Numbered from the stretch's first letter, positions 46,901 to 62,639 are shown. The stretch is DNA of 64,000 nt from Candidatus Culexmicrobium cathedralense (GCA_025061115.1 JANZKC010000001.1:779366-843365), one strand, 5' to 3'. The notes: generated by a model not told the origin, from the sequence alone. Numbers and translations: made by a program.

Positions 46901-47414
46901 GCAGTATGAAGGATTAAAATACACTCACCCAACAACAGCTATTGATCTAGGGCCGAGGATTACAGTTTACAAAAAGTTAAAGACAATGTATGAAAAAGTT
47001 GAAGCGCAAATGAAAATTGCAGAGAAAATAAGAGCTGTGGATAAAAAAGACGTTGCTGAAAGAATACTTACACACCACTTTCTACCTGACTTGATTGGCA
47101 ATTTAAGAGCTTTCACAACGCAAAGTTTGCGTTGTGTAAAATGCAATGCCAAATATGAAAGGCCGCCGTTATCCGGAAAGTGTAGAAAATGTGGTGGTAA
47201 ACTAATCTTAACAGTGCACAGAAAAGGAATAGAAAAGTATCTAAGTTCAACTATGATGCTTATTCGAAAATACAATTTAGGTGAATACTATAGGCAAAGA
47301 ATAGAACTAATAGAAAAAGAACTTGAATTGTTATTTAGTGGAGAAAAGGATCGAAAGCAAACTAGCTTGCTTCAATTCTGGAGAAGTGAGCAGCATGCCA
47401 ATTCAAAAATATGA
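43962..47414 (+). CDS. polC: DNA polymerase D large subunit DP2
   Basis: AGPIRSAGGT, GFRLRYGR.R, RMGRPEK, HAAKRRNCDGDED, Zn fingers; no intein. Confidence 0.97.
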   Translation: MLEISDEMLKYFRNLEEEVKRIYEKAKRAREKSFDPSPEPEIFLAKDLAERVEGLLKSYGITGIAERIRELSAKFKREIVALKIAEEIVYGKFGKFPEEVAAEVAIRAALAILTEGITAAPLQGIEKVKIKRNTDGSKYLSIYYAGPIRSAGGTEQALTVLVGDYVRQLLHLERYKPTDEEVKRFIEEIRLYERHVGRFQYHNSDEELESALRRIPVEITGVATAPLEVSIHRDLPRIETNRIRGGACRVINDGVIGKAAKIRKIAEEVGLVGWDWLREFMKEEGEEQTIKPSEKYLADVVAGRPIFSHPSRVGGFRLRYGRSRNTGLAALGLHPATMVILGGFLAIGTQVRTERPGKSGVIMPVSSIEGPTVRLDDGTVVKIEDLLQAEELRDRIDEILFLGDVLIGFGEFLENNHPLLPSGYVEEWWAQEVQKAINKKFEGNIEKAAKQAGIPIERLRQLLSAWWQEKPRAKEALAISEAFEVPLHPKFTYHWSEVSAGDVQLLKKWIEKAVRTPQGIIGPAEGDIKRILEHLGVPHKLESNSKIVLDEEHGLILLNCLAGEDKNIISAENGLEAVNMISKVRIRNKAPTYIGLRMGRPEKAKERKMKPPVHVLFPVGLEGGSSRNVLEASSKKYAKVKIAERLCLKCRKRTFYVRCPNCLTDTIPIRTCPKCGRETTTTKCPVCNQKTMPYKEKSIDIYNELKRACINLGIQAPPKLIKGVKGLTNVDRTPEPLEKGVLRARHDVYVYKDGTIRFDITNAPLTHFKPKEIGVTIEKLKELGYTRDYLGKPLVHEDQIVELKVQDIIIPIEAASYLMRVARFIDELLVKFYKEEPYYNVKRREDLIGHIVVGIAPHTSAGVIGRIIGFTKAKVCFAHPYWHAAKRRNCDGDEDAIILGLDAFLNFSKSYLPEKRGGLMDTPLVVMVTIDPNEVDDEVFNMETCSMLPIEFYEETQNYADPKEVAKKIENVSDRLGKKEQYEGLKYTHPTTAIDLGPRITVYKKLKTMYEKVEAQMKIAEKIRAVDKKDVAERILTHHFLPDLIGNLRAFTTQSLRCVKCNAKYERPPLSGKCRKCGGKLILTVHRKGIEKYLSSTMMLIRKYNLGEYYRQRIELIEKELELLFSGEKDRKQTSLLQFWRSEQHANSKI

Positions 47415-47676
47415 AGCACTAGCCTTCTTGAGAAGTATAAAAAATGTTAGAAAGGGACTTCTAACTAGAAGTAAGATAATAAGGCTTTTGAAAACAAGGG
47501 CAGCGACAACAAAGGAGCTAGCTGGTAATGTTAAGTTGAGCTACAGCACGGTTAGGAGACATTTAAAAATGATGGAGAAAGAAGGCATCGTCATAAAGGT
47601 TTATCGTAAATGGAAGTTAACGGGCAAAGGACAGCAAGACCTGCTTAAGTATTTAACTAAAAAACCTGCTTATTGA
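47395..47676 (+). CDS. Winged-HTH (ArsR-like) protein
   Basis: IKNVRKG..TR.KI..LL, SYSTVRRHL..M..EG; ATG 47395. Confidence 0.75.
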   Translation: MPIQKYEALAFLRSIKNVRKGLLTRSKIIRLLKTRAATTKELAGNVKLSYSTVRRHLKMMEKEGIVIKVYRKWKLTGKGQQDLLKYLTKKPAY

Positions 47677-47678
47677 AA

Positions 47679-48518
47679 TTATTTGAAGAGTATCTGTAAT
47701 AGGTCTATATCCCTTATCATTCCAATTAAATTCCCCTTTGCGTCGAGAACTGGCAGTTGGTCAATATCATATCGGCGCATTTTTCTAGCACACAAACTTA
47801 CTGGGGTTTGCTCTACCGCGGTGATTACCCGTTTCACCATAACTTCTTCAACGGGTTTATCCGGAAGAGTTAGTTCGCGACTACTTATGTATAATATTGT
47901 AACTGTATCCCAGTCCCACTCCTGCCCCTCAGTAGCTGCCTTTGTGGCAGAAGTATGTTCCTTTAAAGTAATTTCGCATACTGAAATGATATCGGAATCA
48001 GAAATTATTCCAGTCAGCTTTCCCTTAGAATCAATTACTGGAAGAGCTTGAACTTTGGCTAGCCTCATTATAGTGTAAGCCGCTGGAAGAGGCGTTTTTT
48101 CCCAGACAGCAGTAATTTTCCTTGTTACAAAATCTTTAATCGGCTTGATTACGTTCATGTTAGCAATAGCTTTATAGACGATGTCAGCGACAGTAATTAC
48201 ACCTACAAGCTCATTATCACCTACGACAACTGGAAGCCGCCTTATATCTCGCTCCCATAATATGCGAGCCACTTCATTTATGGGAGTTTCCGGATTAACT
48301 GTAATAGGATCTCGAGTCATGAGAAGAGCAAGCTGCTCCTCCATAGGCTTTTTCATTAAATCAGTTCGCGTCACAATTCCTACAACACGTTTTGTGCCCT
48401 TCTTAACTACAGGTAAACCCATAACCTTATGCTTAGTCATTAGTCGCAGTACTTGCTCCCTGGTTCCTGGAACCTCCGCATAAATTACATTAGTGGTCAT
48501 TATGTCTTTCACTTTCAC
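47679..48518 (-). CDS. Four-CBS-domain protein
   Basis: Repeated VKD.M.../LPV/G.I..D CBS motifs. Confidence 0.9.
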   Translation of the reverse strand: MKVKDIMTTNVIYAEVPGTREQVLRLMTKHKVMGLPVVKKGTKRVVGIVTRTDLMKKPMEEQLALLMTRDPITVNPETPINEVARILWERDIRRLPVVVGDNELVGVITVADIVYKAIANMNVIKPIKDFVTRKITAVWEKTPLPAAYTIMRLAKVQALPVIDSKGKLTGIISDSDIISVCEITLKEHTSATKAATEGQEWDWDTVTILYISSRELTLPDKPVEEVMVKRVITAVEQTPVSLCARKMRRYDIDQLPVLDAKGNLIGMIRDIDLLQILFK

Positions 48519-48600
48519 GTAAAATACCCTCCGAAAAACTATGTAACCACAAAATTCAATGAATATCGTTTATGAAAGTTGTATTTATTTTTTCCCTAGC

Positions 48601-48903
48601 TTATTCTCTGTAAGGACAGGTGCAAGGAGAGTTTTTACAGCGGGGGCAAACGTTTTTGTACTTAGAGAAAGCCGCCTTTGCAAGGTCAACCCCGACGAGA
48701 TTCGCTAATGAGGACAGCCAGGCCAGGACATCTGCGAATTCACTCTCCATCAACTCATGGTCTCCATCTCTGATTGCTCTGGCAAGTTCTCCAACTTCCT
48801 CTACAAGCCACATAAAGGTTTTACCGACGCCTCTAGTGCTATCGCGGGTAAAGTAGAGGCGCCGCATCATGTCCTGAAACTCTCTCAGGCTCATTGCGCA
48901 CAC
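48601..48903 (-). CDS. MazG-like nucleotide pyrophosphohydrolase
   Basis: WLVEEVGELA, EFADVLAWL.SLAN, CP.C...PC.C. Confidence 0.88.
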   Translation of the reverse strand: MCAMSLREFQDMMRRLYFTRDSTRGVGKTFMWLVEEVGELARAIRDGDHELMESEFADVLAWLSSLANLVGVDLAKAAFSKYKNVCPRCKNSPCTCPYRE

Positions 48904-48968
48904 CTAAAATATAGCTGGCAAATAAGTTATTAATAGGTTTTAGCAAAACAAGAAGTGGTGGCTAAAGT

Positions 48969-49151
48969 ATGTCCAGAAGAAAGCGTAGAAGAGAGGGGGT
49001 CATGCCCGTAACAGGTGCAGGGTTGATACGCTTCTTTGAAGAGGAAGTAAGAGGAATCAAAGTTAGCCCTATTCACGTAATTATAATGGCTATAGCTTTA
49101 ATGGCATTTGCAATGCTAGGGAACCTAGGGTTCTTGCAATTTCTTAGATAA
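48969..49151 (+). CDS. secG: Preprotein translocase subunit Sec61beta/SecG
   Basis: GAGLIRFFEEE..GIK.SP plus one TM helix. Confidence 0.9.
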   Translation: MSRRKRRREGVMPVTGAGLIRFFEEEVRGIKVSPIHVIIMAIALMAFAMLGNLGFLQFLR

Positions 49152-49742
49152 TTGCAGTATTATTGAGGAGCCAAACTTCAGCCTTTTCAGATCCTCATCC
49201 GATAACTTTTCAATAATAATCTCCTGCCCATCATATGAAGGAGTTATCATACTTATGCCCAAAGGATCTTCAAGTATTAACGTAAAGGGCAGCTTGCCTT
49301 GACTTGCCAGCTTCAATTTATTGAGAACATCAATACATTTCCGCTTCTCATGCTCACTGTCAGAGAGTACGAGAAAACTTTTAGTAGCATCTTTAATTCG
49401 TTCAAGTACCCCCTCAACATTAGTGATAAAGCCCTGTGCAATTGAGCCTGGCTCAATTGTGGCTCCGAGCTCTGGAATGCGTATGGTTCCGCTGCTTGAG
49501 CGTATAACTTTAGCGTATAAGTCCTCTGGCCCTTTAACTTTGAGTATGTATCTTAAAGGCTCTCGAAATTCAAGAGAAAAAACGTCAGTATGCCTATAGC
49601 CGCAGTTAGAACACTTCCAGGAAGCCATGATCATCTTACCAAAAAATGGAATTTCACTATGGGCTTCAATAAATTCAAGGGATAGCTTACCACATACAGG
49701 GCAATGTAATACTTTAAGCCACTCCGGTAGCGCTTCTGACAA
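49125..49742 (-). CDS. ZPR1-related zinc-finger protein
   Basis: CPVC, IPFFG, C..CGYR, IPELG..IEPG, ITNVEG, DPLG.S. Confidence 0.92.
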   Translation of the reverse strand: MSEALPEWLKVLHCPVCGKLSLEFIEAHSEIPFFGKMIMASWKCSNCGYRHTDVFSLEFREPLRYILKVKGPEDLYAKVIRSSSGTIRIPELGATIEPGSIAQGFITNVEGVLERIKDATKSFLVLSDSEHEKRKCIDVLNKLKLASQGKLPFTLILEDPLGISMITPSYDGQEIIIEKLSDEDLKRLKFGSSIILQLSKKLQEP

Positions 49743-49806
49743 TTTAAAGACACCAGAATATAGTTAAGGAAGCTCACTTAAAAGAAATTCTAAAGTTGGG
49801 GGAAAC

Positions 49807-51615
49807 ATGGAGGTTTCAGAGCGAATAGCAAGAAGATACAGGTTACTTTTCAGCTTACCACCACTTCAAACCATAATTATCAGAACTGTAATTTATAGCA
49901 CGTTATTTGGATTAGCAACTGAGCTAGTTAAGGTGGGCACAGTAAGTGAGCAGACACTTAGAACAGGTATAGCTATTAGTATCGCCTATTACTTGATTCC
50001 AGCATTAATTTCAACACCAATAACAGCAGCATTAGTTAAGCGAGAAGTTCTAACTACCAGACGGCTTGCCGGATTGGCATTGTACTGTATACTTTTCACA
50101 GCCCTCGTTCACATCACAGGAGTCACAATGTCAGCGTTACTCGATAATCCAAAATTAGATGAAGCCTCTATGATCTTAAGTTGTGGAGTCATGCTCTCGA
50201 TAAGGTATCTTGTAATTCGATCTCTGGAGGAAGATAAAGTTGGAGCACTACTGGGCGCGGTTACACAGCCATTAATGAGCGCCTTTGCAGCGCTATACTT
50301 CTTGAGAATCTCAGATGTTTATGGTCTACTACCTACGCTTGCAAGGTTAGTTTATGTTGCAGGCTCACTCACCATCAGCTCATGGTGCCTATTGGCAATA
50401 ATAGATTTTAAAGTAACTAAAGGCACAGGGATGAGCGGCATAGAGTTGTTTAGAGCATTTATGCAAAATTGGTTAGCAGGAAAGAAAACAGCACTAGAGC
50501 AGATATTGAGCAGAAATGCAAATGTTAAGGATGTAAAGATTACCAGCATAATTTTCTTCTCCAAGAAGGAAAAGCCCAAATACGCGATAGTCATACCATC
50601 CTTCCATTTCGGACCATTCAGAAATATAGGAAGTAGTCAGCTACCATCAAAAATAATGGAAACACTACATAACGAAGGCATAAATGCAGTAGTATTGCAC
50701 GGAGCTTCAAGCCATGAAGAGGACTTAACAAGCGAAGAGGATTGCCATAAAGTCCTTGATACAATAAGGAAAATGATGAAGAAAGTTAAACCCAAAGCTC
50801 TAAGCGCATCGCCAGTTATGAAAGCAGTACATGGAAAAGCAACAGCATATTGCCAATGCTATGAGGATACAGCATTAATAATCATCACACGAGCCCCCAG
50901 GCTAACTGAAGACCCGCCAAAGTGGGTTGAAGAAAAAATAGTTCATGAAGCCCGAAAGTTAGGACTAAAGGAAGCAATAGTAATTGATGCGCATAACAGC
51001 ATAAGCGACATCGAAATATTGAACAGAAATGATTACGAAGAACTGGTAGAGGCAGCAAAGAAAGCATTGCTAAAAGCAATAAAATCAGAACAGCACCCCT
51101 TGAAGATCGGGACAGCACGCAGAAGAATAGTAGAGTATACCGAAAAACAAGGGATAGGGAGGGGAGGAGTACTAGCAACAGTTATTGAAACTGGTGGAAG
51201 GCGATTTACGACAATAGTTTTTGACGGCAACAATATGATACCAGAATTTAGAGAAAAAGTTCTGCAAGCACTTAAGTCTACAGGTCTCGAAGAAATAGAA
51301 GTCCTAACCACAGATACGCATAGCGTAAGTGGATTAACAACAATCGCTAGAGGATATCACCCCGTAGGAGAAGCAGTAAACCAAAACAAGCTTATAGAGT
51401 ACACAATTGAAGTAGCGATAGAAGCGCTGAAAAACCTGACAGAAGTCACATACACTATAGAATCAGTAACCGTCAAAGAAGTGAAAATCCTAGGCGAAAA
51501 ACTTCTACAAAAAATCTCCCAGGCAATTGAAATATCATTAAGAACAGCTAAAAAAGTAGCAATTATCGCATATCTGATATCGATTGTGACCTCAGTCCTA
51601 ATACTTTTAACTTAA
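49807..51615 (+). CDS. DUF2070-family membrane protein
   Basis: TM N-terminus, H.GPF...GSS.LP, IDAHN, DGNN, TTDTH. Confidence 0.85.
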   Translation: MEVSERIARRYRLLFSLPPLQTIIIRTVIYSTLFGLATELVKVGTVSEQTLRTGIAISIAYYLIPALISTPITAALVKREVLTTRRLAGLALYCILFTALVHITGVTMSALLDNPKLDEASMILSCGVMLSIRYLVIRSLEEDKVGALLGAVTQPLMSAFAALYFLRISDVYGLLPTLARLVYVAGSLTISSWCLLAIIDFKVTKGTGMSGIELFRAFMQNWLAGKKTALEQILSRNANVKDVKITSIIFFSKKEKPKYAIVIPSFHFGPFRNIGSSQLPSKIMETLHNEGINAVVLHGASSHEEDLTSEEDCHKVLDTIRKMMKKVKPKALSASPVMKAVHGKATAYCQCYEDTALIIITRAPRLTEDPPKWVEEKIVHEARKLGLKEAIVIDAHNSISDIEILNRNDYEELVEAAKKALLKAIKSEQHPLKIGTARRRIVEYTEKQGIGRGGVLATVIETGGRRFTTIVFDGNNMIPEFREKVLQALKSTGLEEIEVLTTDTHSVSGLTTIARGYHPVGEAVNQNKLIEYTIEVAIEALKNLTEVTYTIESVTVKEVKILGEKLLQKISQAIEISLRTAKKVAIIAYLISIVTSVLILLT

Positions 51616-52206
51616 ATAAATATTTAAACAAATCAACAAACAAAAATAACATAATGATAACTAATTTGTTGATATTTTAACTGATATAAGAAATATTAGA
51701 AAACAAACCCCTTCTGATCCACTCTCCATCAGCTCATGGTCTGAAAGCAAACTCGATTCCAGCAAATCAGTTCGAAGTATTGGGGGATAGCACACATAAA
51801 CTCTAAAGAAAATTTGTAAGCCTTAACGCGCGGGGCCCTATCCCAATATGGGCTGGAATTGCTAGTAAAAGGTGTTGCCGTCAGAATAGGGGTACTCAAA
51901 ATATTGCAGATTTCAGTTTGGTGAAGGTTGGCTACAGACATGCTGAATGCTAAACGTAACAAATTAGAGTGCAATTGGAATAACTGAGTGCATTAAAGTT
52001 CTCATTCAGAGCGAATCACCATCAAATGATGATCCCCAAATTGGTGCAGTATTTGGGCCCTATTTATTTAATTAGGCTTAGTGAAGTCACATTCGGGCCG
52101 CCGCTTAGAATGGATATCATAAAATTATTGGAAAAACCATTAAATTAAGGCATCTTTTAACCCTCTTTGCAGAGTCATTGACCATTAATTGATGATGGTT
52201 AAAAGC

Positions 52207-52243
52207 GTGATAATGTGACTATTGTGATGTGATTTGTGTCACG
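52207..52243. promoter_or_regulatory. Cluster of GTGA repeats including imperfect palindrome TGTGATTTGTGTCACG
   Basis: GTGA at 52207, 52215, 52224, 52229; palindrome 52228-52243 nearly identical to 54673-54688. Confidence 0.55.
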
Positions 52244-52253
52244 TATCATTGAG

Positions 52254-54587
52254 TTAATTAAGGTATTTTAGAGAAGCTGCGAATGCTTGGCCTAGGGAGA
52301 TTCCTCCATCTCCTGGAGGGACTAAACGATGTCTTAGTAATTTGAGGCCGTGCTTGCATACTTCACTTTGAATAGTATGTACTAATAGGTCGTTAACTGC
52401 GGCCCCACCAGATATACCTATGAAGTTGGTGTTTACGTGTTCGGCTACTTGTAAAGCGGCTTTTGCAAGGGCTTTTGCTAAGGATCTATGTATTTGTTTG
52501 GCAATTAGGTTTGGGGGGGTATTCGAGTTAGATTCTATTTGGTCTATTACTTGTCTTAGGAGATCATTGACATCTATAATGGTAATGTTGTCGATTATTA
52601 GTGGAACATCAAAGTGGATAGAGTCTGATTCTGGGGCACTCAGTGCAAAAGATTCAAATTTCATTGCTGGTTCGCCTTCATATGTTCGCTCATAACACAC
52701 GCCAAATAATGCGGAAAAGGCATCAAGAACTCGACCTAAACTAGAGGTCTTATGAACATTAAGGCCTCTGGATAGCTGTTTGAGAACAGCTTCTATTTCT
52801 ACTGGTCCGTACTTGAAGCCGGCCGAACAATGTGACATAAGAAAGTCACGGACATCGTCTAGGGAAAAGATGTTTGAAAGCATACCGGCAAGCATTCGGG
52901 CCGGGTATCTTGCTGATGCATCGCCCCCAGGCATTGGCTGGTATTTTAGGTGTCCAAGCCTTTCAAATTCACCATCTTTATAAAGAATTATTTCGCCACC
53001 CCAAGCAGCGCCATCTAGTCCATAACCATAGCCGTCTATTATAATGCCTACAACAGGCTCATTTATTGGCACATTCGACTCAGCCATTAGAGAAGATAAA
53101 TGAGCATAATGATGCTGCACCTGAATCAATTCTGCATTAAACTCTTCGGCAAGGATATGCGCTAGCCTTGTCGTTGAAAAGTTTGGATGGAGATCGCATG
53201 CAATGACATCAACACGCCGAGTTCTAGTAACCTTCATAAGGAATGATAAAGCATTTCTTAAAAAGTTCAACGAGTCATAGTTATCTACATCACCGATATG
53301 CTGCGTTAAGAAGCATTTACCCTTCCTGAGCAGAGCACCAGTAACTTGAAGTTCTGCTCCTAGAGAGAGAATAGTTACTTTTGATGTTAATGTATTCAAA
53401 TGAATGGGAGTAGGAGCGTAACCACGTGACCTTCGAATAAAGGTAGGGAGATTCGAAGTCACACGCAACACTGAATCGTCACATCTATTCACAATTCTAC
53501 GGTTGTGAACTAAAAAGTAATCCACTATATGGCTTAGGCGTTTGAAAGCATCAACGTTATCTATTACCATAGGCTCCCCAGGAATATTGCCGCTCGTCAT
53601 GATAACTGCAGGTTCACGCGAGTAACGTAAAAGTAAAAGATGAATGCCTGTGTATGGCAACATAACGCCAACATTATGTAATCCTGGTGAAACCCACTTA
53701 GAGAGATAATAACGGGGGGATTTACGTAGCAAGAGGATGGGTCTTTGATATGATTTCAATAGCTGTTCTTCCACTTCACTTACAACTGCATAAGTACGAA
53801 TAGTAGAGACATCAGGAGACATAACTGCAAAGGGGCGAGACTTACGTTTTCTCCTCTTACGTAATTCTAAAACTACATCATCATCGACAGCTGCTGCAGC
53901 TATATGAAAACCGCCAATTCCCTTTACGGCTATTATAAATCCCTCATGAAGAAGTTTTGCTGCAGTGTATATGGGCTTTTGATCATCTATCAAATCACCC
54001 TTATTATCATAAAGAAACATTCGAGGCCCGCATTTCGGGCAGCAAATGCCCTCAGCATGATAGCGACGATCTAATGGATCTTCATACTCTTTCAGACAGT
54101 CTCTACATAAAGGGAAGTCAACCATAGATGTGCGCTCACGATCATATGGTAAATCACATATCACAGTGAATCTCGGGCCGCAAACTGCGCAGCATGTAAA
54201 GGGATAATCATACCATCGCCGGCCCGGTGTTAAAATATCAGCAATGCAATCATCGCAAATGCCAACATCTGGAGGTACCGTTGATAAAACTTTAGAAGCG
54301 CGGGGAGAGCTAACTTCAATTTTGAACTCCTTAAATTCACCTGTATACTTCCCCCAAGTAATTTTTAATGAATCAATTCTAGCAGTTGGAGGCTTCTTAT
54401 TCTTTAACTCTTCAACAAAATTATAAATTGTAGACTCCTCACCTTCCAATACAATTTCAACGCCAGCATCTCCCAAATTTAGAACGTAACCTTTTAAATT
54501 ATGAGATAAAGCTAACCTGTAAACAAATGGCCTGAAACCTACACCTTGTACAATGCCACTGACATGTATGATTGCTCGACGTAGCAT
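52254..54587 (-). CDS. hypF: [NiFe]-hydrogenase maturation carbamoyltransferase
   Basis: G.VQGVGFRPF, two Zn fingers, KGIGGFH, DLHP, QHH.AH, PGDGG.SLGQ. Confidence 0.96.
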   Translation of the reverse strand: MLRRAIIHVSGIVQGVGFRPFVYRLALSHNLKGYVLNLGDAGVEIVLEGEESTIYNFVEELKNKKPPTARIDSLKITWGKYTGEFKEFKIEVSSPRASKVLSTVPPDVGICDDCIADILTPGRRWYDYPFTCCAVCGPRFTVICDLPYDRERTSMVDFPLCRDCLKEYEDPLDRRYHAEGICCPKCGPRMFLYDNKGDLIDDQKPIYTAAKLLHEGFIIAVKGIGGFHIAAAAVDDDVVLELRKRRKRKSRPFAVMSPDVSTIRTYAVVSEVEEQLLKSYQRPILLLRKSPRYYLSKWVSPGLHNVGVMLPYTGIHLLLLRYSREPAVIMTSGNIPGEPMVIDNVDAFKRLSHIVDYFLVHNRRIVNRCDDSVLRVTSNLPTFIRRSRGYAPTPIHLNTLTSKVTILSLGAELQVTGALLRKGKCFLTQHIGDVDNYDSLNFLRNALSFLMKVTRTRRVDVIACDLHPNFSTTRLAHILAEEFNAELIQVQHHYAHLSSLMAESNVPINEPVVGIIIDGYGYGLDGAAWGGEIILYKDGEFERLGHLKYQPMPGGDASARYPARMLAGMLSNIFSLDDVRDFLMSHCSAGFKYGPVEIEAVLKQLSRGLNVHKTSSLGRVLDAFSALFGVCYERTYEGEPAMKFESFALSAPESDSIHFDVPLIIDNITIIDVNDLLRQVIDQIESNSNTPPNLIAKQIHRSLAKALAKAALQVAEHVNTNFIGISGGAAVNDLLVHTIQSEVCKHGLKLLRHRLVPPGDGGISLGQAFAASLKYLN

Positions 54588-54661
54588 GATGTATGAACCT
54601 CTAAGCTAAAGTGATTGACCAACAAATCATTTAAGCATTATGATAATTTAACTTCAAGAAG

Positions 54662-54696
54662 ATGTGATATAAAGTGATTTATGTCACATATGTGAA
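54662..54696. promoter_or_regulatory. Operator-like cluster AGTGATTTATGTCACA between divergent hypF and wHTH genes
   Basis: TATGTCACATA (54680-54690) is the exact reverse complement of TATGTGACATA (56128-56138). Confidence 0.55.
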
Positions 54697-54862
54697 TAAA
54701 GCAAATGTTACAAAAACAAATATTAGGTGCAACAGACATGATCAACAAAGTATAATAAAATAAAGAAGAATTATTACAAACAACTTTCTTGAAAAACCAT
54801 GAAAAGACCATGAATTTTCCTTGATGTGACGATACAGCTCTCAGTCTGCAAAAGAGCTTTAA

Positions 54863-55627
54863 GTGAGAAGTTACATAATTATGCAACGAAACAACAAGGG
54901 AAATGAGACTATGACAGCAAAAGGACAAGATGACTTATATCAACTTATTCAAGAACTTAAAAGAGATCTCATAGAGTATTTTGACCTCATAATACGAAGG
55001 TTAGCAAGACTTAGAATGTTGGAGGAACGCTTAGACATACTTGAAGAATACATTACTGATATCAAAGGACGATTTAGAAAAATAGAATATATTCTTGCAG
55101 ATATTCTTGAAAAAGAAAGAAAAGTAACACCACCCATATATGCTCCAACAATTGAAAGACCAAGAAGAAGAGTAGCTGGGATAAGAGAGGAAAGATCTGT
55201 AGCTGTAATAAGACCATTAGAAGAAGCGCCTAGAGAGGTTGTAGCTAAGCCGGTTACTAAACATGTAAGGACGGATATTTCTGCTGAAAAAGCTCCAACA
55301 GTTACGCAACCAAAAATGGAAGAAAAACCAAAAATCACAATCACAAAAGAAATCACAGAAGATGATTTGGCCATCAAATATTCAAAGTTAACTCAGACTG
55401 AAAAACAAATATTGAAAGTTTTAATTCGAAATCCAAATCTTAGAGGAGGAACAAGCATAGCAAGAAGGATAGGTAAAGCAAGAGAACATACTTGTCGTTT
55501 ACTAAAGAAGTTAACCCAGAAAGGATTTTTAATTAGAGATGAATCTGTTTGGCCATATGCGTACTTTGTGCCGGAAAAAGTTAAGCAAATGGTAATGCTT
55601 GAAGAACAGTTAAACGTCACATCATAG
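54863..55627 (+). CDS. Coiled-coil + linker + C-terminal winged-HTH protein
   Basis: N-terminal heptads, P/E/K-rich linker, LTQTEKQIL..L...IARRIGKAREHTCRLLKKL..KG...RD...PY.Y; start probably ATG 54910. Confidence 0.8.
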   Translation: MRSYIIMQRNNKGNETMTAKGQDDLYQLIQELKRDLIEYFDLIIRRLARLRMLEERLDILEEYITDIKGRFRKIEYILADILEKERKVTPPIYAPTIERPRRRVAGIREERSVAVIRPLEEAPREVVAKPVTKHVRTDISAEKAPTVTQPKMEEKPKITITKEITEDDLAIKYSKLTQTEKQILKVLIRNPNLRGGTSIARRIGKAREHTCRLLKKLTQKGFLIRDESVWPYAYFVPEKVKQMVMLEEQLNVTS

Positions 55628-55653
55628 AGTGTAGATTTTGTTAATATTGAGGA

Positions 55654-56100
55654 TTATTTAACCTTGGAGACAAGCTCTTTGGAGAATCGATAACGCCATC
55701 GAGCTCTAGAACCTTGTCTATCTAATAACCCGGAGTAGTGAAGACGTGCAAGATATGTTGTAATGATATTTACAGGTATAACCTCACCATATTCTTCAAA
55801 GAAGGCCATAGCAACTTGTTTACTAGTAAACCAAGTCTTATTGAACCGTTTATTTAATAGCAGAATCAATTTTTCCTTGAGAGCTTTACTACGCCGCCTT
55901 TTTTCCGTCATCACTCGTTCAGTCACAATAGGTGTGACAGTGTGACTTAAATTGTCATAACCACTTGAAAATAACTCCACAAGATCAAGTAGTTGCTTAA
56001 TTTTTTCTGGCCCAAAATAACCTTCAAGTGTGATTGAAATTTTTTCTCCTGACGGTGATGTGTACTCTATTCGCCATTTACCTTTATTCATTAAATACAC
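55654..56100 (-). CDS. Small winged-HTH protein with N-terminal beta domain
   Basis: WFTS......F.E.YGE.I....ITTYLARL...G.L.R.G..ARW.Y. Confidence 0.8.
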   Translation of the reverse strand: MYLMNKGKWRIEYTSPSGEKISITLEGYFGPEKIKQLLDLVELFSSGYDNLSHTVTPIVTERVMTEKRRRSKALKEKLILLLNKRFNKTWFTSKQVAMAFFEEYGEVIPVNIITTYLARLHYSGLLDRQGSRARWRYRFSKELVSKVK

Positions 56101-56304
56101 TCTCCGGAGAGAGCGTCTTAAAACTATTATGTGACATATATAATAAGTTTTCGCTTTTATGGAGTAGACAACAGATATAAATCTAAAAAAAGCGTTTTAA
56201 GAGCTTTTTTCTTTGAAAAAAGAGTTGTCTGCAAAAATCAAGTGTAAAGAGCTTTAGATAATTCTAAACTATGTTGTAAAAGGCTTTTTCAAGCTTTTCC
56301 ACAT

Positions 56305-57103
56305 GTTCCAGTGGAAATAGAGGGGTGTTATTTGTAGACAACATTTTTTATCCTCTGTAGGATAAAGATATTAACCCTAAGTCCATATAAATCCAATAAC
56401 AGGTAATGGTGAATTTAATGAAATTCATGAGTCAACCGCATAGTGAACTATTTAAATTAAGTTTTAAGCTCTCTGAATAAAACTATCCCGGTTATAAAAG
56501 GCAAAAATGTGCAAACATGATGATCTCAAATATCTTTAATCTGATGGTAAGCCTGCATATTTGATGATCTCATGATCGAAATATTTATATATCAGAATTG
56601 ATGCATCTGTGAAGGTTACGGTTTTAGTACACTGGTCAGTTTACTATATTTCCACATGAGAAACCATCAGAACAATGAAATTGAACCCGTTAGGCACCAT
56701 CAAACACTCATTCCAGACAGCCCCCGACAGTAGTTCCTACATAAATTTCACATGAAAATGATAGTGCCTATAGGCACCATAAAAGGGAAGCAGCACCAAA
56801 AAACTCAAACTTCAGCTACATACAGATTTCATCCAGATCAAGCCCCGGTTTAAATTCAGAATATGAACAGTTAAGGGGTGATCATTTCCCAGCGACCCCT
56901 GTATTTCCTCTGAATCAAGTAAAAAATTGGTGACTTAAATAAGATATTATGAGTTATCTAGAAATTTTGAGAAGAATATCTTGTAATATAGATAATAATT
57001 CTTAAATATAAAATAATTAACATACCAACGGAGTATTTTTCATTTTCATGAAAACAAATAAAGGAAAGCCTTTCGGAGTATTTTCCACTAGAAGTGGAGG
57101 GGT
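56305..57103. other. Candidate chromosomal replication origin (oriC) with three ORB elements
   Basis: ORB1 TTCCAGTGGAAATAGAGGGGT (56306-56326,+), ORB2 ATTCAGAGGAAATACAGGGGT (56895-56915,-), ORB3 TTCCACTAGAAGTGGAGGGGT (57083-57103,+); AT-rich DUE-like 56916-57060; about 1 kb non-coding. Confidence 0.8.
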
Positions 57104-57110
57104 CTGTGGG

Positions 57111-57416
57111 GTGGCATATATTGATGTTGATCGAGCATTAGCATTATCATCATTTGTTCCTTTAAGGGAGCGTTATAGATTTTTAGATATAGTCTTGGAT
57201 GCCTGTGGTGGTAATATTTCCAGGGCTGCAAGGGAAATCGGAATTTCGCGTTCGCAAATTTACAGATATTTGGGTAGAGCTGAGAGACGTGATATTCCTT
57301 CTGATGAAGTTCTAGCTAAGATCATCATTGCTGCTTATCGTTTGCGGCCTGTAAAGACTAGGGATGTTTTTCGTTTTCTTTTAAGTCAGTTTTCCGCTTT
57401 GGTTTCTAGGCTGTAA
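57111..57416 (+). CDS. Small HTH protein (Fis/Xre-like)
   Basis: GGNISRAAREIGISRSQIYRYL; GTG 57111 after a GGGG tract preferred over ATG 57048, which would overlap ORB3. Confidence 0.75.
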   Translation: MAYIDVDRALALSSFVPLRERYRFLDIVLDACGGNISRAAREIGISRSQIYRYLGRAERRDIPSDEVLAKIIIAAYRLRPVKTRDVFRFLLSQFSALVSRL

Positions 57417-57450
57417 CTATTTCGTTAATTTTAATTGACTTCTTTCACTA

Positions 57451-58248
57451 TTGTTTGAGGGTGTTGTCTTGTTTTTCGTCGATGTGCATTGTCATCTCGA
57501 GGACGAAGCTTTTGACAAAGATAGAAATGAAGTTATTAGGCGAGCTTATGAAGCCGGTGTTGTCGCAATTATAAATTCTAGTTTAGATTTTGAAGGAGCT
57601 ATAAAATCCCTTAGGCTTTCCTTACAATATCCCGGTTTTATTTTTACAACTCTAGGGTGGGATCCTACAGATCTTGATCGTGATTTGGTGAATAAACTTC
57701 ATAGTTTGGCAAGAGAGCAAAAGTATAAAATTGTAGGTATAGGTGAGGTTGGGCTAGACTACTATTACGTTAGAGATCATGCTCTCAGGGAACTTCAACA
57801 GGACTTATTTAGAGAATGGATTGCATTAGCTAAGGAACTTGATCTTCCATTGGTAATTCACTCTAGGAGTGCAGGTAAATATGCGTTGCAAATACTGTTT
57901 GAAGAGGGTGCTGAAAAGGTATTGATGCATGCTTACGATGGCCGGCCCAGCTGGGCATTAAAAGCTGCTCAGGCCGGCTATTATTTCTCAATTCCAACTT
58001 CCGTGTGGAGATCGCGTCAAAAACAAAAGCTTGTAAGAGCTCTTCCTCTAGAGCAACTTATGCTAGAAACAGACTCGCCTGTTCTTTCGCCAATTCTGGG
58101 CCGGCGAAATGAACCTGCCAATATACTTTATGCTGCAAGAAAAGTTGCAGAAATTAAAGGTGTTAGTGTAGAGAAAGTTGCTGAAATTACAACTCAGAAT
58201 GCTATTAACTTTTTCTCATTGAAATTGGGATTGCCTATTTTCAAGTAA
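57451..58248 (+). CDS. tatD: TatD-family deoxyribonuclease
   Basis: DVHCH, GEVGLD, IHSR, ETDSP, RNEP. Confidence 0.92.
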   Translation: MFEGVVLFFVDVHCHLEDEAFDKDRNEVIRRAYEAGVVAIINSSLDFEGAIKSLRLSLQYPGFIFTTLGWDPTDLDRDLVNKLHSLAREQKYKIVGIGEVGLDYYYVRDHALRELQQDLFREWIALAKELDLPLVIHSRSAGKYALQILFEEGAEKVLMHAYDGRPSWALKAAQAGYYFSIPTSVWRSRQKQKLVRALPLEQLMLETDSPVLSPILGRRNEPANILYAARKVAEIKGVSVEKVAEITTQNAINFFSLKLGLPIFK

Positions 58249-58257
58249 AAAATGTTA

Positions 58258-58414
58258 AGGCCGGCCCAGTAAATTAATGCTTGGCCTTGGAAGCCTTCCA
58301 TCTTTGAGTATTCTTATGGGTCAGAACAGTAAAGACAGGATCAGGCAGATCAATAACTAAGAATGTTGTTCAAGTTAACGAAAATACGGATACTAGATCA
58401 TTACGGGCCGGCCT
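58258..58414 (-). ncRNA. Unclassified ncRNA candidate with GC-clamped terminal stem
   Basis: 10-bp perfect inverted ends AGGCCGGCCC/GGGCCGGCCT; TTAAATAT about 25 nt upstream and T6 downstream on the minus strand. Confidence 0.45.
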
Positions 58415-58536
58415 CAAAACCACTACCCAGAATATTTAATAGTAATATTTAATGTCGAGCTGTATCTCAACAAAATAAACTCTTAAATCCCCGCTATGCC
58501 TATCTAATATGGTTATGACTTTGAGGTGTATATTGG

Positions 58537-58956
58537 ATGCAAATTAAAATCTCAGTATTAGGTGTTTCCGCTGAACGGTTATGGCCTATTGACAAACCCT
58601 ATCCCACACAACTTCGCATTAGTACTAGCCTGAATATTATCAATTTTAAAACTGTAGAGGAATCGTCAGCTGAAGCTGAATTTATTTTTGCAGCAAACTA
58701 TTCACCCCCAGTTGCGCAATTAAGGATAAAGGGTATAGTCAAGATTCTCGGCTCTCAGGATGAGCTCTCATCTTTAATTGAACAACATAAAGTGAAGAAG
58801 CACTTACCGCCAATTTTTGTACAATCCCTGCTCAATGCTGTTTTAACTGAAGCTGTTCTCCTGTCAAAAATAATTAATGCTCCTCCTCCAATTCCATTTC
58901 CAAGTTTGCCAACAACTAAAAAGGGTGATCGTGGGCCGCCTACTTACGTTGCTTAG
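58537..58956 (+). CDS. Hypothetical protein (beta-sheet + helix, possibly SecB-like)
   Basis: F.F..NY.P..A...IKG, Pro-rich C-terminus; GAGGTG RBS. Confidence 0.7.
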   Translation: MQIKISVLGVSAERLWPIDKPYPTQLRISTSLNIINFKTVEESSAEAEFIFAANYSPPVAQLRIKGIVKILGSQDELSSLIEQHKVKKHLPPIFVQSLLNAVLTEAVLLSKIINAPPPIPFPSLPTTKKGDRGPPTYVA

Positions 58957-59263
58957 TCTTTATTGAAATTATTTGAGCTAGATTTAGTGATGATGCGATC
59001 CATGGTATAAGCATTAAAAGTACCCACAATGACAGTGTTCTTGTAATTTTCAGACTGAGGAAGATGAAGGTTACTAATAATATTGTTTCAAGTGGAATCC
59101 ATAGTATTAAGGCTTTTAGCCCAATTTTCTTCATCAATCTTTTTAAGATTGGATTTTGCTCTTCGCCTTCAGCTATTTTAGCCAGGATATATGTCGTAAG
59201 TGAATCTAATACTGCCCCCAATGCAACTATAATTATGATACTCTGAAACTCCAATTCTGCCAC
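58940..59263 (-). CDS. Small membrane protein (DUF5658-like)
   Basis: LD..TTY......EE.NP plus three TM helices. Confidence 0.65.
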   Translation of the reverse strand: MAELEFQSIIIIVALGAVLDSLTTYILAKIAEGEEQNPILKRLMKKIGLKALILWIPLETILLVTFIFLSLKITRTLSLWVLLMLIPWIASSLNLAQIISIKTKQRK

Positions 59264-59316
59264 CCGTTCTCGTAAATGTTATTACTTTTTTATTTGTTAT
59301 TTTTACCGGACCTGTT

Positions 59317-59921
59317 ATGCGCTTTCTTGTAATTAGTGATGTGCATGGAAATTTAAAGGCGCCCCAGGCAGCAGTAAATTGTTTCTTTAAATTTTAACGT
59401 AGATGCTATAGCTTGTTGCGGTGATGTTGAATCTCAGAAGTAGTTCCGTATAATTTCTAGTAATTTGCAATCATTCTTTGTTTCTGGAAATATGGATGGG
59501 CGATCGATTTTAAAGATTCTGGAGCAGTCAGGCATAAGTGTTCATGGTAAGTTAATCAAGTTTAGGCAATATTTCATTGGAGGTATTGGGCGGCTTTAAA
59601 ATGGAAAAAGCTTTAGCTATGCTGAAAAATGCACTTGAAAAGCAGCGCCCAGAGAAGTGGATTCTCATAACGCACTTTCCGCCTAAAAACACACCTGCAG
59701 ACAAATTCTTTATATGTTTTCATGTAGGTGATAAAGACATCAGAAAATTAATTTACCAATATAAGCCGTCTGCCTGTTTCTGTGGCCATATTCATGAGAG
59801 TCCATGTATTTCTCATGTAGAAGACTTTTTAATTGTGAATCCCGGCCCGGCTTTGAAATGGAGAGCTGCAATTGTAGACTTAGACAAGGATCATGCGGGG
59901 GTCATATCGCTTAAATATTAA
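59317..59921 (+). pseudogene. Frameshifted Icc-like metallophosphoesterase
   Basis: MRFLVISDVHGN, VDAIACCGD, FVSGNMD, THFPP, CGHIHE and NPG pieces separated by stops and frameshifts. Confidence 0.75.
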
Positions 59922-60036
59922 GTTAAGCCTTTCATTGATCAATCTGGCTAAACTCCTTGTGAATAATTTTTAGCTGCGACGCGTCAAATATTATATAGGC
60001 CTCAAATAGAGGATGATATAATGAGGTGTTAATTAA

Positions 60037-60816
60037 TTGGTGAAAGTTGCTGATTTAATGGATTCAAGACACCCTACCGTTCCATATGATTCAACTTCGG
60101 GTTATGCCAGAGCGACTTTCCGAGAAACAAGAGTAAGAATTCTTCCAGTGCTAGATGGTGAAAAGCTTGTTGGAGTGATTACTCGAATAGGCATCATGAG
60201 TGTAACTGCAACTAGATCCGACTTAACCGTGAGGGACTTGATGATTACGCCTCAATTGGTGCTGAAGCCTTATGAAGACATTTTTAATGCTGCGCAAAAA
60301 CTTCTTCAAGTTGATGATTGGTATGCTCCAGTAGTTGATGAGCAGAATAAGTATCTTGGCGTGTATGGTCTTGAGCACTTTATGATTTACATGCTTAATC
60401 AAGAACATCCTGCCAATTCAGAACCCGTAAAGAAATATATGAGCCAAAACGTCGAGTTTGTCTATGTCGATGACCCAATATCAAAAGTATGGCATAAAAT
60501 GCTCGAATTTCGATATGCTGGATTTCCAGTAATCACTCATGAAGGCAAACTGATAGGCGTTGTCACGCAGATAGATATACTTAAACGAGGCTTCACCCGC
60601 TTACAATTGGAATCCGAGAGTGCTCCTCGCCGCGGCCCCACAGTTGAAGCTGTCATGTCAACTCCACCAATAACTATCCCCCCTAGCGCTTCAATACATG
60701 AAGCTGCAAAAATTATGGTCGATCGAAACATAGGCAGGCTTATTGTCGTTAAAGGCGGAAAAATTGAGGGGATAATAGATAGAAGCGACATCACTCGCGC
60801 ATATCTGAGTTTTTAG
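60037..60816 (+). CDS. CBS-domain protein
   Basis: Four CBS repeats. Confidence 0.9.
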   Translation: MVKVADLMDSRHPTVPYDSTSGYARATFRETRVRILPVLDGEKLVGVITRIGIMSVTATRSDLTVRDLMITPQLVLKPYEDIFNAAQKLLQVDDWYAPVVDEQNKYLGVYGLEHFMIYMLNQEHPANSEPVKKYMSQNVEFVYVDDPISKVWHKMLEFRYAGFPVITHEGKLIGVVTQIDILKRGFTRLQLESESAPRRGPTVEAVMSTPPITIPPSASIHEAAKIMVDRNIGRLIVVKGGKIEGIIDRSDITRAYLSF

Positions 60817-60916
60817 CCTTAAAATTACGTTTCCTAACATATTTCCAATTATTTCTGAAATTTTAGAAATACAGTGCATTTAAAGTTTCATTAATGGTGT
60901 TTTTAGGATGATGAGT

Positions 60917-60982
60917 TTATGGAGGGCCTCGATCCGTAATTATTGGTCTGATTTTCTCCAATATCGGGGCTCTCCAGATCAT
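60917..60982 (-). CDS. Putative 21-aa leader peptide MIWRAPILEKIRPIITDRGPP inside a long hairpin (60904-60997)
   Basis: GGGGTGA RBS 6 nt before ATG; minus-strand BRE-TATA GAGAAAAGCTTATAAG at 61035-61050. Confidence 0.35.
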   Translation of the reverse strand: MIWRAPILEKIRPIITDRGPP

Positions 60983-61023
60983 GGCTCATCACCCCTATTC
61001 TCATTATTTCCAATTATTATAAT

Positions 61024-61092
61024 ATGAGAACATGCTTATAAGCTTTTCTCGCTTTTACATATTATAAAAAATGAGAAAAACTTATAAGTCTC
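61024..61092. promoter_or_regulatory. Divergent twin BRE-TATA promoters with ATGAGAA repeats
   Basis: GAGAAAAGCTTATAAG (-, 61035-61050) and GAGAAAAACTTATAAG (+, 61073-61088); ATGAGAA/TTCTCAT at 60998, 61024, 61071. Confidence 0.6.
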
Positions 61093-61129
61093 GTCAAGCG
61101 CATAAACATGATTGTAATGCGCATTTTAA

Positions 61130-61537
61130 TTGGGGGCGATCAATATGAACAGCGCCAGACAATATTACACTGTAGATGTCAAGCCTGAGAGTAAAGTAGT
61201 CATAGTTACATTTAGTGGATCTTCAATGAACTTTAAAACAATACAATCTGCGCTCATTCAACTCAAAAGCTACATAATCGAAGGATACCAAATCAAACTT
61301 AGAGGATATATGACTAGAAAAAGTAGCAGCCTAAAGGCATTCATGTTTGCATTATCACTAGTTGGACAGGAAAACCGAATAATCTTTGAAAACAAGGCCA
61401 GATACAGTAAAGCCGAAAGAAGAAGAAAGCGAGTAAAAGCCAGAGAATTAAGAAGGAAAGGTTTCACAGCTAAGCAAATATCTCGAGAATTAAAAATACC
61501 TCTAAAAACAGTCTACAGATGGCTTAAAGAAGCATGA
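61130..61537 (+). CDS. HTH-domain protein
   Basis: C-terminal AKQISRELKIPLKTVYRWL; start may be ATG 61145. Confidence 0.8.
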   Translation: MGAINMNSARQYYTVDVKPESKVVIVTFSGSSMNFKTIQSALIQLKSYIIEGYQIKLRGYMTRKSSSLKAFMFALSLVGQENRIIFENKARYSKAERRRKRVKARELRRKGFTAKQISRELKIPLKTVYRWLKEA

Positions 61538-61576
61538 AGAGTAGCCAACGAAATGTGAAAATTTAGTGGAATGCTG

Positions 61577-61693
61577 GGCCGAGGGGCCCGAACCGAGTAG
61601 TGATGTACCAGGTAATGAATGTTAAGCCAAGATGTTTAATTATTAATGGATTGGATGCAAATAGTTCTCCCGCCGGCGGAAAACCCCCGGCCA
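61577..61693 (+). ncRNA. Structured ncRNA candidate downstream of the HTH gene
   Basis: GGCCGAGGGG...CCCCCGGCC terminal stem, inner CCG/CGG pairing, GTGATG and ATGA boxes; GC-rich ends in an AT-rich context; strand uncertain. Confidence 0.4.
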
Positions 61694-62470
61694 ATTTACT
61701 CTTACGCTAATCTACCTCTAAAATCTTTTACAAAATTCAATAACGTTTTTTACAAATACTTACAAACCATCTTCTCATATTTTTCACAAAAATTCCATTT
61801 TAGGAAAAATTTTAATTTTTAGATAGTTGACGGTGATGGTTACGTATAAATGTTATAATAATGGCCAAGCATCGATTGAATAGCTCAATATAAGTAAGTA
61901 TGTTACAGATTGGTGGACTAAGAATGTCAATTAAAATGAGAGAGTGAAAACTGGATTGCTAGGGGTGCTGAGTCGTTTTCCCGATAGGCCTATTATATTC
62001 CGGGTAAGTGGGAGCTAGTAACGAAGAAACTTATTTTAACGGTCATCATAAAGAATACTGTTCTGGGGTTTTGTTTGCAGCCGATCTGTGTTAAGACTAA
62101 TCATAAGCCTGAGTGGTATAAGCGCTATCGTAAGTAGCCTGTTACTTTTTTAGGGATTTGTCTTCTGATACTATCATTTGCGTTCCTCCCTGACATGCGC
62201 CTAAAAATTGGGATTAAGTGGGGAAATTTATGGTTAGGGGATTTCATGAGAGTCGCTAGAAAGCGAATAATTCTCATTTTAGGCAATATTTTAACTTTAA
62301 AACCATGATTAATCAATGCTTCAAGAGCGCTGAGAGAACGAATAACCTTCGCAAAATACATGAAAAACATGAAGAAAACCATCAGTTAGCCTAGTGCTGC
62401 TAATTCAGAAAACTCTTCAGAACCCGCGTAATTCTATAGGCTTCTTTTACTCAGAAAAGCTAGGAAAAGG

Positions 62471-62491
62471 TGGTAGCGGGGGGATTTGAAC
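62471..62491 (-). mobile_element. Degenerate tRNA 3'-end fragment (att-like scar)
   Basis: Minus strand GTTCAAATCCCCCCGCTACCA = T-loop + shortened stem + CGCT-A-CCA, resembling an initiator tRNA-Met 3' end. Confidence 0.45.
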
Positions 62492-62639
62492 TACATTCAT
62501 AAAATTGTATAGAAAATTTTTAAGCTATGCTCCTCCTCGAATTTGATGTTGTTTTTTAGCGATTACAATAATTCTCCTTTTTCATAAATGTCAATTTAAC
62601 CATGAATTTTCCGCTTCTTTCCCATTCTCTTTGTAAAGG

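Follow-up and report, generated by a model that had tools for sequence, protein, structure and literature searches.

An origin-linked pair of winged-helix protein families and a TGTGA site array predicted to form a DNA-binding module in Methanomethylicia and related archaea

A 64-kb stretch of DNA from Candidatus Culexmicrobium cathedralense (the window; GCA_025061115.1, JANZKC010000001.1:779366-843365) contains two convergent genes, here designated A and B, that encode winged helix-turn-helix (wHTH) proteins and lie beside a long spacer carrying origin recognition box (ORB) elements. The window is the end of contig C1 of a 1.98-Mb genome in 25 contigs (G000; 41% G+C; class Methanomethylicia), and positions are window coordinates unless a contig is named. 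A preliminary description of the region had proposed that the gene pair and a surrounding array of TGTGA(C/T) sites constitute an origin-control or partition system, and that proposal was partly supported here. We tentatively favor the interpretation that the spacer is an ORB-type chromosomal replication origin and that the neighboring genes specify two sequence-specific DNA-binding proteins, an ancient pair linked to the origin; together these would form a domain of ~4 kb serving the origin region. Origin linkage and conservation of the array are well supported, and an origin-linked, sequence-specific DNA-binding module is a well-supported prediction from sequence comparisons.

The site array was assessed by counting TGTGAC on both strands (TGTGAC/GTCACA) across the 1.98-Mb genome. 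Twelve of the 261 copies fall within 4.2 kb (52036-56235), compared with a Poisson mean of 0.55 (p about 1e-12), and the runner-up among 4.2-kb windows genome-wide holds four; for ATGTGAC, 8 of 86 copies are at the locus. Because the motif had been picked after looking at the region, an unbiased screen of 2080 strand-collapsed hexamers in 6326 windows was performed. The TGTGAC cluster was the sixth locus overall (p about 1e-12), behind a clustered regularly interspaced short palindromic repeat (CRISPR) array, a GC-rich cluster on contig C4 (~21 kb), an A/C-rich stretch, and two AT-only words. With repeats and words made up of A and T alone set aside, the screen placed it first. The enrichment over the genome on which the preliminary description depended is therefore strong and unique to the locus. 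Across G000, GTNAC is depleted (observed/expected 0.35-0.51; 1091 copies of GTSAC and 2004 of GTWAC), which could mirror avoidance of a MaeIII- or Tsp45I-like restriction site, and GTWAC is mildly raised at the locus (11 vs. 4.25 expected). Local relaxation of GTNAC avoidance was ruled out as the source of the cluster because 12 of the 15 GTSAC pentamers at the locus carry a 5′ T, compared with 261 of 1091 (24%) in the whole genome; TGTGAC thus behaves as a specific word. A dispersed regulon was likewise rejected, with 18 of the 249 sites beyond the locus (7%) being intergenic, compared with 12% of the genome. No homologue of A or B was found in G000 outside the window. Contigs from four DNA runs showed ~16 same-strain differences in 5.5 kb, none of them in a TGTGAC hexamer; only ~0.2 was expected there, so the comparison has no power. 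Separately, the genome's highest count of the bare TGTGA/TCACA core (25 in 4.2 kb) was recorded on a 14-kb contig (G000:C7:2101-6300), together with a GCATGA cluster.

The 12 hexamers are located at 52086, 52214, 52831, 53458, 53478, 54683, 54825, 55616, 55922, 55933, 55941, and 56130, and the motif sites previously listed were all present to within one base. In what follows, relative genomes are coded G002-G005, G013, G014, and G038, and families f3, f5, f7, and f10; promoter statements refer to TATA-like boxes read by eye. The outlying GTCACA (52086-52091, minus strand), in the convergent spacer between the DUF2070 and hypF genes, has a counterpart at the matching position in G002 and G005. 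Just 3′ of hypF is a composite site (52207-52245) with five GTGAY/RTCAC half-sites, including GTGATTTGTGTCAC, that is kept in G002, G004, and G005. At least four such half-sites within 45 bp occur at just two places in G000, at 52207 and inside B at 55910. Three hexamers lie within hypF (52831, 53458, and 53478). In the divergent promoter region between hypF and A, an operator-like site, GTGATTTATGTCACATA (54674-54690), abuts the TATA-like GATATAAAG, and a TGATGTGACG site (54822-54831, plus strand) follows ~80 bp upstream of the probable ATG of A. The reverse complement of TGATGTGACG covers the final codons of A (55615-55624, minus strand), these being two of its four copies in G000. An intragenic cluster in the linker-coding part of B (55910-55946) consists of ATCAC, GTCACA, and then a TGTGACagTGTGAC doublet, the last kept in G002 and G005. 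The palindrome TATGTGACATA (56128-56138) is directly downstream of the TATA-like TTATATAT of B (minus strand) and upstream of the B start, with a TGTGAC at the equivalent place in G002. Together with TATGTCACATA (54680-54690), it represents one 11-bp odd palindrome, TATGT-S-ACATA, of which these are the sole two copies in G000. The element GTGATTT.TGTCAC had been reported as a 16-bp palindrome in two copies; both copies exist, but GTGATTTNTGTCAC is 14 bp long, starts at 52229 and 54674, and is palindromic in GTGA...TCAC alone. It too occurs nowhere else in G000.

Local clusters of TGTGAC were also found in relatives: 14 in 4.5 kb in G002 (320 genome-wide), 4 in 0.6 kb in G004 (87), 8 in 3.7 kb in G005 (203), and 7 in 1.5 kb and 6 in 1.3 kb in two f5 genomes (294 and 216, respectively). 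Positions correspond between genomes, with two sites 3′ of hypF, one in the hypF/A spacer, one near the start of A, some in the linker-coding part of A, and one beside the TATA-like box of B; the position of the TGTGACnnTGTGAC doublet in the linker-coding part of B is also shared. G003, which is without A, has no TGTGAC cluster, and its spacer 3′ of hypF is only 4 bp. When hexamers were tested de novo in ten lineage groups across Methanomethylicia, Bathyarchaeia, and Nitrososphaeria, a word with the TCACA/TGTGA core ranked first in eight and among the top five in a ninth. TGTGA units crowd the A promoter and the linker-coding part of A in a Nitrososphaeraceae locus, and in G013 the 2.5-kb A/B window is the densest for TGTGA/TCACA in 1.52 Mb (22 vs. 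3.2 expected; next best, 14). Family f5 has a TCACAtTGTGA palindrome within the origin spacer, about 260 bp from B. Clusters persist without B in Nitrososphaeraceae and some Bathyarchaeia, while none of four B-only loci has three or more sites, these loci representing just two independent losses of A.

The origin-like spacer (56101-57110) contains ORB1 (56303-56326, plus strand), a mini-ORB (56644-56655, minus), ORB3 (56895-56926, minus; inverted and 568 bp from ORB1), and ORB2 (57080-57103, plus), as well as an A/T-rich stretch (56140-56300) and other conserved boxes, which confirms the earlier placement of an ORB region beside the gene pair. The ORB consensus is TTCCAGTGGAAAT...GGGGT. The full-ORB pattern (TCCANTNGAA, 2-9 bases, GGGG) has five matches in G000; the two in the spacer, at 56307 and 57084, both have the extended form tTTCCAnTnGAAnTnGAGGGGT and count as the only full ORBs of the genome, which has no second copy of the exact 13-mer TTCCAGTGGAAAT. 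ORB elements are kept in the aligned spacers of G003, G004, and G005, whose mean identity of 63% is high for noncoding DNA; the A and B proteins of those genomes are 50-66% identical. Among twenty 20-kb relative loci, 13 contained ORB matches, all of them no more than ~2.3 kb from the B start and on the side opposite A. Three matches were found in G038 (800 of 1024 kb read), and all adjoin B. No ORB cluster was detected upstream of the three G000 orc1 genes, which have upstream spacers of 50, 66, and 290 bp. No TGTGAC lies between ORB1 and ORB2 in G000, placing the array beside the origin rather than within it.

Other features of the spacer were also recorded. GTAGACAACA occurs twice (56164 and 56334), with an inverted GTTGTCTGC at 56224; TGCAnA..TGATGATCTCA is duplicated (56510-56528 and 56554-56572); and a palindrome, ATAGTGCCTATAGGCACCAT, lies at 56761-56780, with a consensus-like TTTATATAT at 56584. 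These extra conserved boxes could be sites for other factors or a small RNA. Rfam (E up to 1) and transfer RNA scans of 51000-58000 and 47000-64000 gave no match. ORB2 falls within the first 56 nt of the open reading frame (ORF) of the adjacent Fis-type helix-turn-helix (HTH) gene (57048-57416, plus strand). Because that ORF overlaps ORB2 at its start and encodes 122 residues, compared with 99-121 (most about 100) in its homologues, the true start is probably further downstream, leaving ORB2 intergenic.

Strand composition was followed most fully in G013, a complete genome read from end to end. There the detrended cumulative GC skew traces one inverted V, with a maximum at 800 kb and a minimum at ~0-20 kb, and the gene pair is located at 795-797 kb, at the maximum. 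The cumulative gene-strand curve has a trough at 680-800 kb, most genes to the left of the locus being transcribed leftward and most to its right rightward. Because the skew extreme and the diverging genes coincide with the pair, the A/B locus of G013 is probably a replichore boundary, and the diverging genes and ORBs point to an origin there. In G000, an upward trend in the skew begins at 680 kb and continues to the end of the contig, matching in sign the part of G013 left of the locus; only 7.9 kb of contig remains beyond the spacer, too little to show a switch. G038 has a small local skew maximum only, over the same 800 kb. Elsewhere on C1, the skew minimum adjoins the A/C-rich hexamer cluster at 693-698 kb and is separated by ~30-40 kb from the weakest orc1-like gene (647985-649028); G000:C1:680000-700000 may be another replichore boundary.

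Linkage of A and B to origins extends well beyond this genome. Relative loci were gathered with an alignment of A, and among 41 genomes searched, G000 included, A was found in 29 and B in 33. Across Methanomethylicia families the order DUF2070, hypF, A, B, long spacer (0.7-1.1 kb), Fis-type HTH gene is kept, and the Fis-type HTH gene, often followed by TatD, replaces orc1 at the far side of the spacer. A is absent beside B in family f7 and in G003, from the same family as the window, with B retained; in G014, orc1 is 2.7 kb from B. Outside the class, 50 loci with a relative of A were examined (Bathyarchaeia/Bathyarchaeota, Nitrososphaeria/Thaumarchaeota, and others). Orc1/cdc6 lies just past A in 22, and in 11 of those B is situated between the two, with A and B convergent and B and orc1 divergent; the intervening DNA often contains ORBs. 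Nitrososphaeraceae loci show A, ORBs, and then orc1, B not being detectable. The origin linkage that had been suggested as a check in Bathyarchaeia and Nitrososphaeria was thus recovered as the order A, B, ORBs, orc1/cdc6. In family f10, B and orc1 are divergent neighbors in five of five complete genomes, at the start or end of the chromosome record. A phylum-wide sample of 251 genomes yielded B in 169, rarely with more than one match per genome and with occurrence by family ranging from 37/37, 14/14, and 12/12 in some to 0/11, 1/19, 0/9, and 0/9 in others. A and B remain at the ORB spacer where hypF has been lost (family f3 and Nitrososphaeria) or orc1 has moved (Methanomethylicia).

Gene A occupies 54911-55627 on the plus strand. 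Its ORF can be read from GTG at 54863 (254 residues), and the probable start is the ATG at 54911 (238 residues), as in the database copy. The structural model, built from an alignment of 17 sequences and numbered for the 254-residue form, comprises a single helix (residues 19-88; predicted local distance difference test [pLDDT] about 96), a disordered linker of ~75 residues (89-165), and a winged helix (166-253; pLDDT above 90), in agreement with the coiled-coil/linker/wHTH architecture originally proposed. The N-terminal helix has GCN4-type coiled-coil likeness by sequence, and a profile search of PDB sequences recovered coiled-coil look-alikes only, such as GCN4 fusions. Foldseek matched the winged helix to MepR (3eco; E 2.3e-4) and SlyA (1lj9; E 5.6e-4), both with probability 1.00, and, at rank 27, to the pNOB8 centromere protein AspA (4rs8; E 1.9e-3; template modeling score 0.74 by target). 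Pfam family PF01047 (MarR) scored 16.9 bits (cut-off 24.6; E 0.0062), all other HTH families, TrmB-type models included, were also below their cut-offs, and the NCBIfam models Lrs14, Sta1, and Csa3 were far under theirs. Close homologues of A are unnamed. In the monomer model, the remote 70-residue helix and disordered tether stand where MarR has an adjacent dimer core. The recognition-helix region is invariant at K205, R207, E208, H209, and R212 in the 17 sequences. Because of this invariance, and because clusters persist without B and were not seen without A, A is the likeliest candidate reader of the TGTGA motif.

Gene B (55654-56100, minus strand) probably starts at the ATG at residue 4. 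Its model, from 21 sequences, contains a beta-beta-alpha unit (residues 8-45), a disordered linker (48-65) that is variable among homologues, and a long helix plus winged helix (62-139), so that its earlier assignment as a small wHTH protein convergent with A holds for both fold and coordinates. In a structure search, residues 64-148 matched FurB (2o03; Z 10.5; root-mean-square deviation 1.8 over 74 aligned), TA0346 (Z 8.9), and the PadR-family protein Rv3488 (Z 8.3). The C-terminal domain resembles the DNA-binding domains of Fur, PadR, and IclR, with PadR and ArsR detected at E about 1e-2. No Pfam or NCBIfam family gave a meaningful match or reached its cut-off, and the profile of B found one meaningless match among PDB sequences. 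In the Atlas, Penicillinase_R was annotated on 10-18% of members in the best feature-scoring neighbor clusters of B and on 60% of one structurally similar cluster. With an E threshold of 1e-3 the B profile collected 404 cluster representatives, and 297 remained at 1e-10; most are 120-180 residues long. Ten members that were looked up are unnamed or hypothetical, bar one: P0075, of 163 residues, is named [quoted passage not shown] by one source, which is almost certainly an automatic mislabel. A complex prediction for A and B scored 0.00 and is uninformative either way.

These features suggest how a domain serving the origin region might be assembled. A would dimerize or form a higher oligomer through its 70-residue coiled coil, leaving the winged helices hanging on flexible tethers of ~75 residues, each able to read one TGTGA(C) unit. 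Such tethers would let one A oligomer hold units in either orientation and at any spacing, and thereby bridge the separate clusters at the hypF 3′ end, the hypF/A promoter, the A 3′ end, the inside of B, and the B promoter. The outcome would be a nucleoprotein domain of ~4 kb adjoining oriC, with repression of the overlapped B, A, and hypF promoters as a by-product; because the sites adjoin TATA-like boxes, A or B are putative repressors of the B and hypF/A promoters. B, the more widespread partner and always flanking the ORB spacer, may be a second DNA-binding or adaptor component, and in other classes its expression would share the origin spacer with orc1. The domain could serve the origin region by organizing or anchoring it in a centromere-like manner, or by coupling gene dosage and titration to replication. 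A bolder version of this proposal is that A, B, and TGTGA constitute a ParA-independent origin-organizing or centromere-like system common to the PolD-bearing Thermoproteota (here Nitrososphaeria, including the ammonia oxidizers, Bathyarchaeia, and Methanomethylicia), in which A gathers the kilobase-scale cluster and positions, condenses, or times the origin, with B as the origin-side partner. We consider this broader system rather unlikely.

A number of observations weigh against an origin-organizing domain. No ParA/SegA-type ATPase was found in a Pfam scan (E up to 0.1) of nine genes (A, B, and seven neighbors), as had been remarked at the outset. The two best palindromes sit where the operators of a simple repressor would, and at least one site inside hypF, that at 53458, falls in a coding stretch that is conserved in relatives. 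Exact TGTGAC is clustered (three or more sites) in just 20 of 53 A+B loci, duplicate records included, and the unit that generalizes is only the 5-bp TGTGA core. Bathyarchaeia loci showing no B or orc1 keep the divergent hypF-A adjacency, and a Bathyarchaeia group with hypF-A alone has no TCACA enrichment. As to the origin itself, the skew extreme in G013 is a maximum, which under bacterial polarity would mark a terminus; the C1 skew minimum in G000, at ~680-690 kb, is 150 kb from the locus; and the G000 orc1/cdc6 genes are at C4:102 kb, C2:285 kb, and C1:648 kb, the nearest 186 kb from the locus.

Several of these points would fit plain local transcription control, a quite possible alternative. 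Here A, alone or together with B, would be an ordinary autorepressor with hypF as a further target and the sites as operators; copies inside genes would be incidental or serve as roadblocks, and proximity to the origin would be synteny inherited without any function of its own. The 56128-56138 palindrome is placed between the TATA-like box and the start of B, the 54674-54690 site abuts another such box, and clusters occur upstream of A in many lineages. A repressor does not readily account, however, for 12 hexamers and two composites of 4-5 units over 4.2 kb, at conserved positions that include the hypF 3′ end, the last codons of A, and the inside of B, or for the densest TGTGA window of an entire 1.52-Mb genome (G013). 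Adjacency of hypF and A in many Bathyarchaeia loci without B or orc1 is consistent with local control, yet A and B keep to the ORB spacer despite hypF loss or orc1 relocation, and B is single-copy in 169 of 251 sampled genomes. Winged helices of the MarR, PadR, and Fur types belong mostly to transcription factors, and no partition ATPase accompanies these among the neighboring genes scanned, but the coiled coil and long tether of A would be unusual in a simple repressor.

Alternatively, A and/or B may modulate origin firing or the supply of initiator, through titration, an occluding or activating complex, or the orc1 promoter, with no role in organizing or segregating DNA. This would be in keeping with the ORB spacer shared divergently by B and orc1 in other classes, with the f5 palindrome inside the origin spacer ~260 bp from B, and with the retention of the pair beside the ORBs, rather than orc1, in Methanomethylicia. 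It is nonetheless improbable: the interval between ORB1 and ORB2 in G000 is free of TGTGAC, and neither sequence nor fold connected either protein with Orc1, WhiP/Cdt1, or any other replication factor. Least credible by far is a nonfunctional array arising from chance, a compositional quirk such as lost GTNAC avoidance, or a remnant of foreign DNA. The genome-wide depletion of GTNAC and the mildly raised GTWAC at the locus would be expected of such a quirk, but the cluster survives the all-hexamer screen at p about 1e-12, its GTSAC pentamers are biased toward a 5′ T (12/15 vs. 24%), clusters of this core recur at these genes in three classes, and gene order is conserved class-wide. The reading tentatively favored remains an origin-linked DNA-binding pair that forms a local domain.

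The gene order in the window is PolD large subunit (43962-47414), several small genes, DUF2070 membrane protein (49807-51615), spacer, hypF, A, B, spacer, Fis-type HTH gene, and TatD, so that the neighbors of the convergent pair are hypF, the Fis-type HTH gene, and TatD. The hypF gene (carbamoyltransferase; 52254-54587, minus strand) carries Pfam HypF domains, and the origin-like spacer between B and the Fis-type HTH gene measures 948 bp. The convergent DUF2070/hypF spacer (51616-52253; 640 bp) is unusually long; it contains a box, CACCATCAAATGATGATC, at ~52017-52034 that is common to G002 and recalls the TGATGATCTCA boxes of the origin spacer. The PolD large subunit gene is 9 kb from the ORB spacer and no more than 6 kb from A in many Bathyarchaeia and Nitrososphaeria loci, and PolD, (hypF), A, B, oriC, and orc1 form an old replication island. 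Elsewhere in G000, the 2.1-kb contig G000:C25 ends in a partial Cdc6_C match (1849-2087; 23 bits) preceded immediately by two TACAAGTGGAAAT repeats 65 bp apart, and may be either a misassembled fragment or an additional origin with its initiator, carried by a mobile element. The CRISPR array begins at G000:C1:340669 and has at least 36 copies of a 24-letter repeat core, spaced at 64-69 bp.

Chromosome organization, segregation, and timing are largely unexplained in archaea outside the Sulfolobales. In the available portions of two reviews, SegAB and the plasmid AspA-ParBA are the only systems named, and cell-cycle control is called poorly understood (PMC7617429, PMC5120986). No description of the A or B families, their oriC linkage, or the TGTGA array was found in the portions of the literature covered, which included PMC4010727, PMC3914693, PMC7617429, and PMC5120986. 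Within that coverage, the folds are known; neither family, nor the deep-rooted tie of the two to oriC, nor the TGTGA array appears to have been described previously. The locus adds two unnamed protein families and a recognizable cis-element at the origin in three large, ecologically important classes, and the pair offers a new marker for origin prediction in uncultivated archaea whose orc1 has relocated. Should it prove to be merely an autoregulated repressor, it would still be a widely conserved and unusually site-rich one; a ParA-independent system, if true, would bear on segregation and cell-cycle control that are unexplained in PolD-bearing Thermoproteota.

Comparison with known systems places the module between several of them. 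Its nearest repressor relatives are of the MarR/PadR/BlaI/Fur type, which it resembles in the C-terminal folds of A and B and in the operator-like palindromes at their own promoters. In the monomer model, however, A is without a visible MarR-type dimer core beside the winged helix and has a remote coiled coil instead, B has an extra N-terminal beta-beta-alpha domain, and the number and spread of sites are far beyond a usual operator. The spacer is like an ORB-type oriC1 in having several ORBs over a long distance, including an inverted pair 568 bp apart, and in the adjacency of orc1 in other classes; it differs in that orc1 is not adjacent in G000 and other Methanomethylicia, where the Fis-type HTH gene takes its place.

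Among partition systems, AspA of the Sulfolobus plasmid pNOB8 is presented in the available part of one review as a small wHTH protein that occupies a palindrome located 5′ of its own gene and, by spreading, builds a large nucleoprotein structure (PMC5120986). The winged helix of A superposes on AspA, and in both cases the sites are at the genes themselves. Dozens of MarR regulators match that fold at least as well, the coiled coil and long tether of A have no counterpart in AspA, and the sites here are short units over 4 kb, chromosomal and origin-linked, compared with one 23-bp palindrome for AspA. An aspA-parB-parA cassette was absent among the genes scanned, and A and B are convergent. For SegAB of Sulfolobus, the portions available of two reviews allow the SegB sites to be either centromere or operator (PMC5120986, PMC7617429), an ambiguity that, as presented there, is common to SegAB and the A/B array. 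In contrast to A and B, segB always follows the ParA-type segA, no such ATPase being adjacent here, and SegAB is not described as origin-adjacent. The SegB fold is ribbon-helix-helix, unlike A or B. ParB/parS provides a precedent for sites within the gene of their own protein, as parS sites occur inside spo0J. The likeness extends to a protein gene beside the origin, sites clustered around and inside that gene, and local action rather than a regulon, the last being predicted here. No ParB N-terminal (ParBc) domain was detected by Pfam in the nine genes scanned (E up to 0.1), the unit measures 5-6 bp, compared with a palindrome of 16 bp for parS, and sliding dependent on cytidine triphosphate cannot be assumed for A or B. 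By analogy, then, the A/B module would work most like the centromere-type systems (AspA, ParB/parS, and SegB), yet it falls outside each of them as they are defined.

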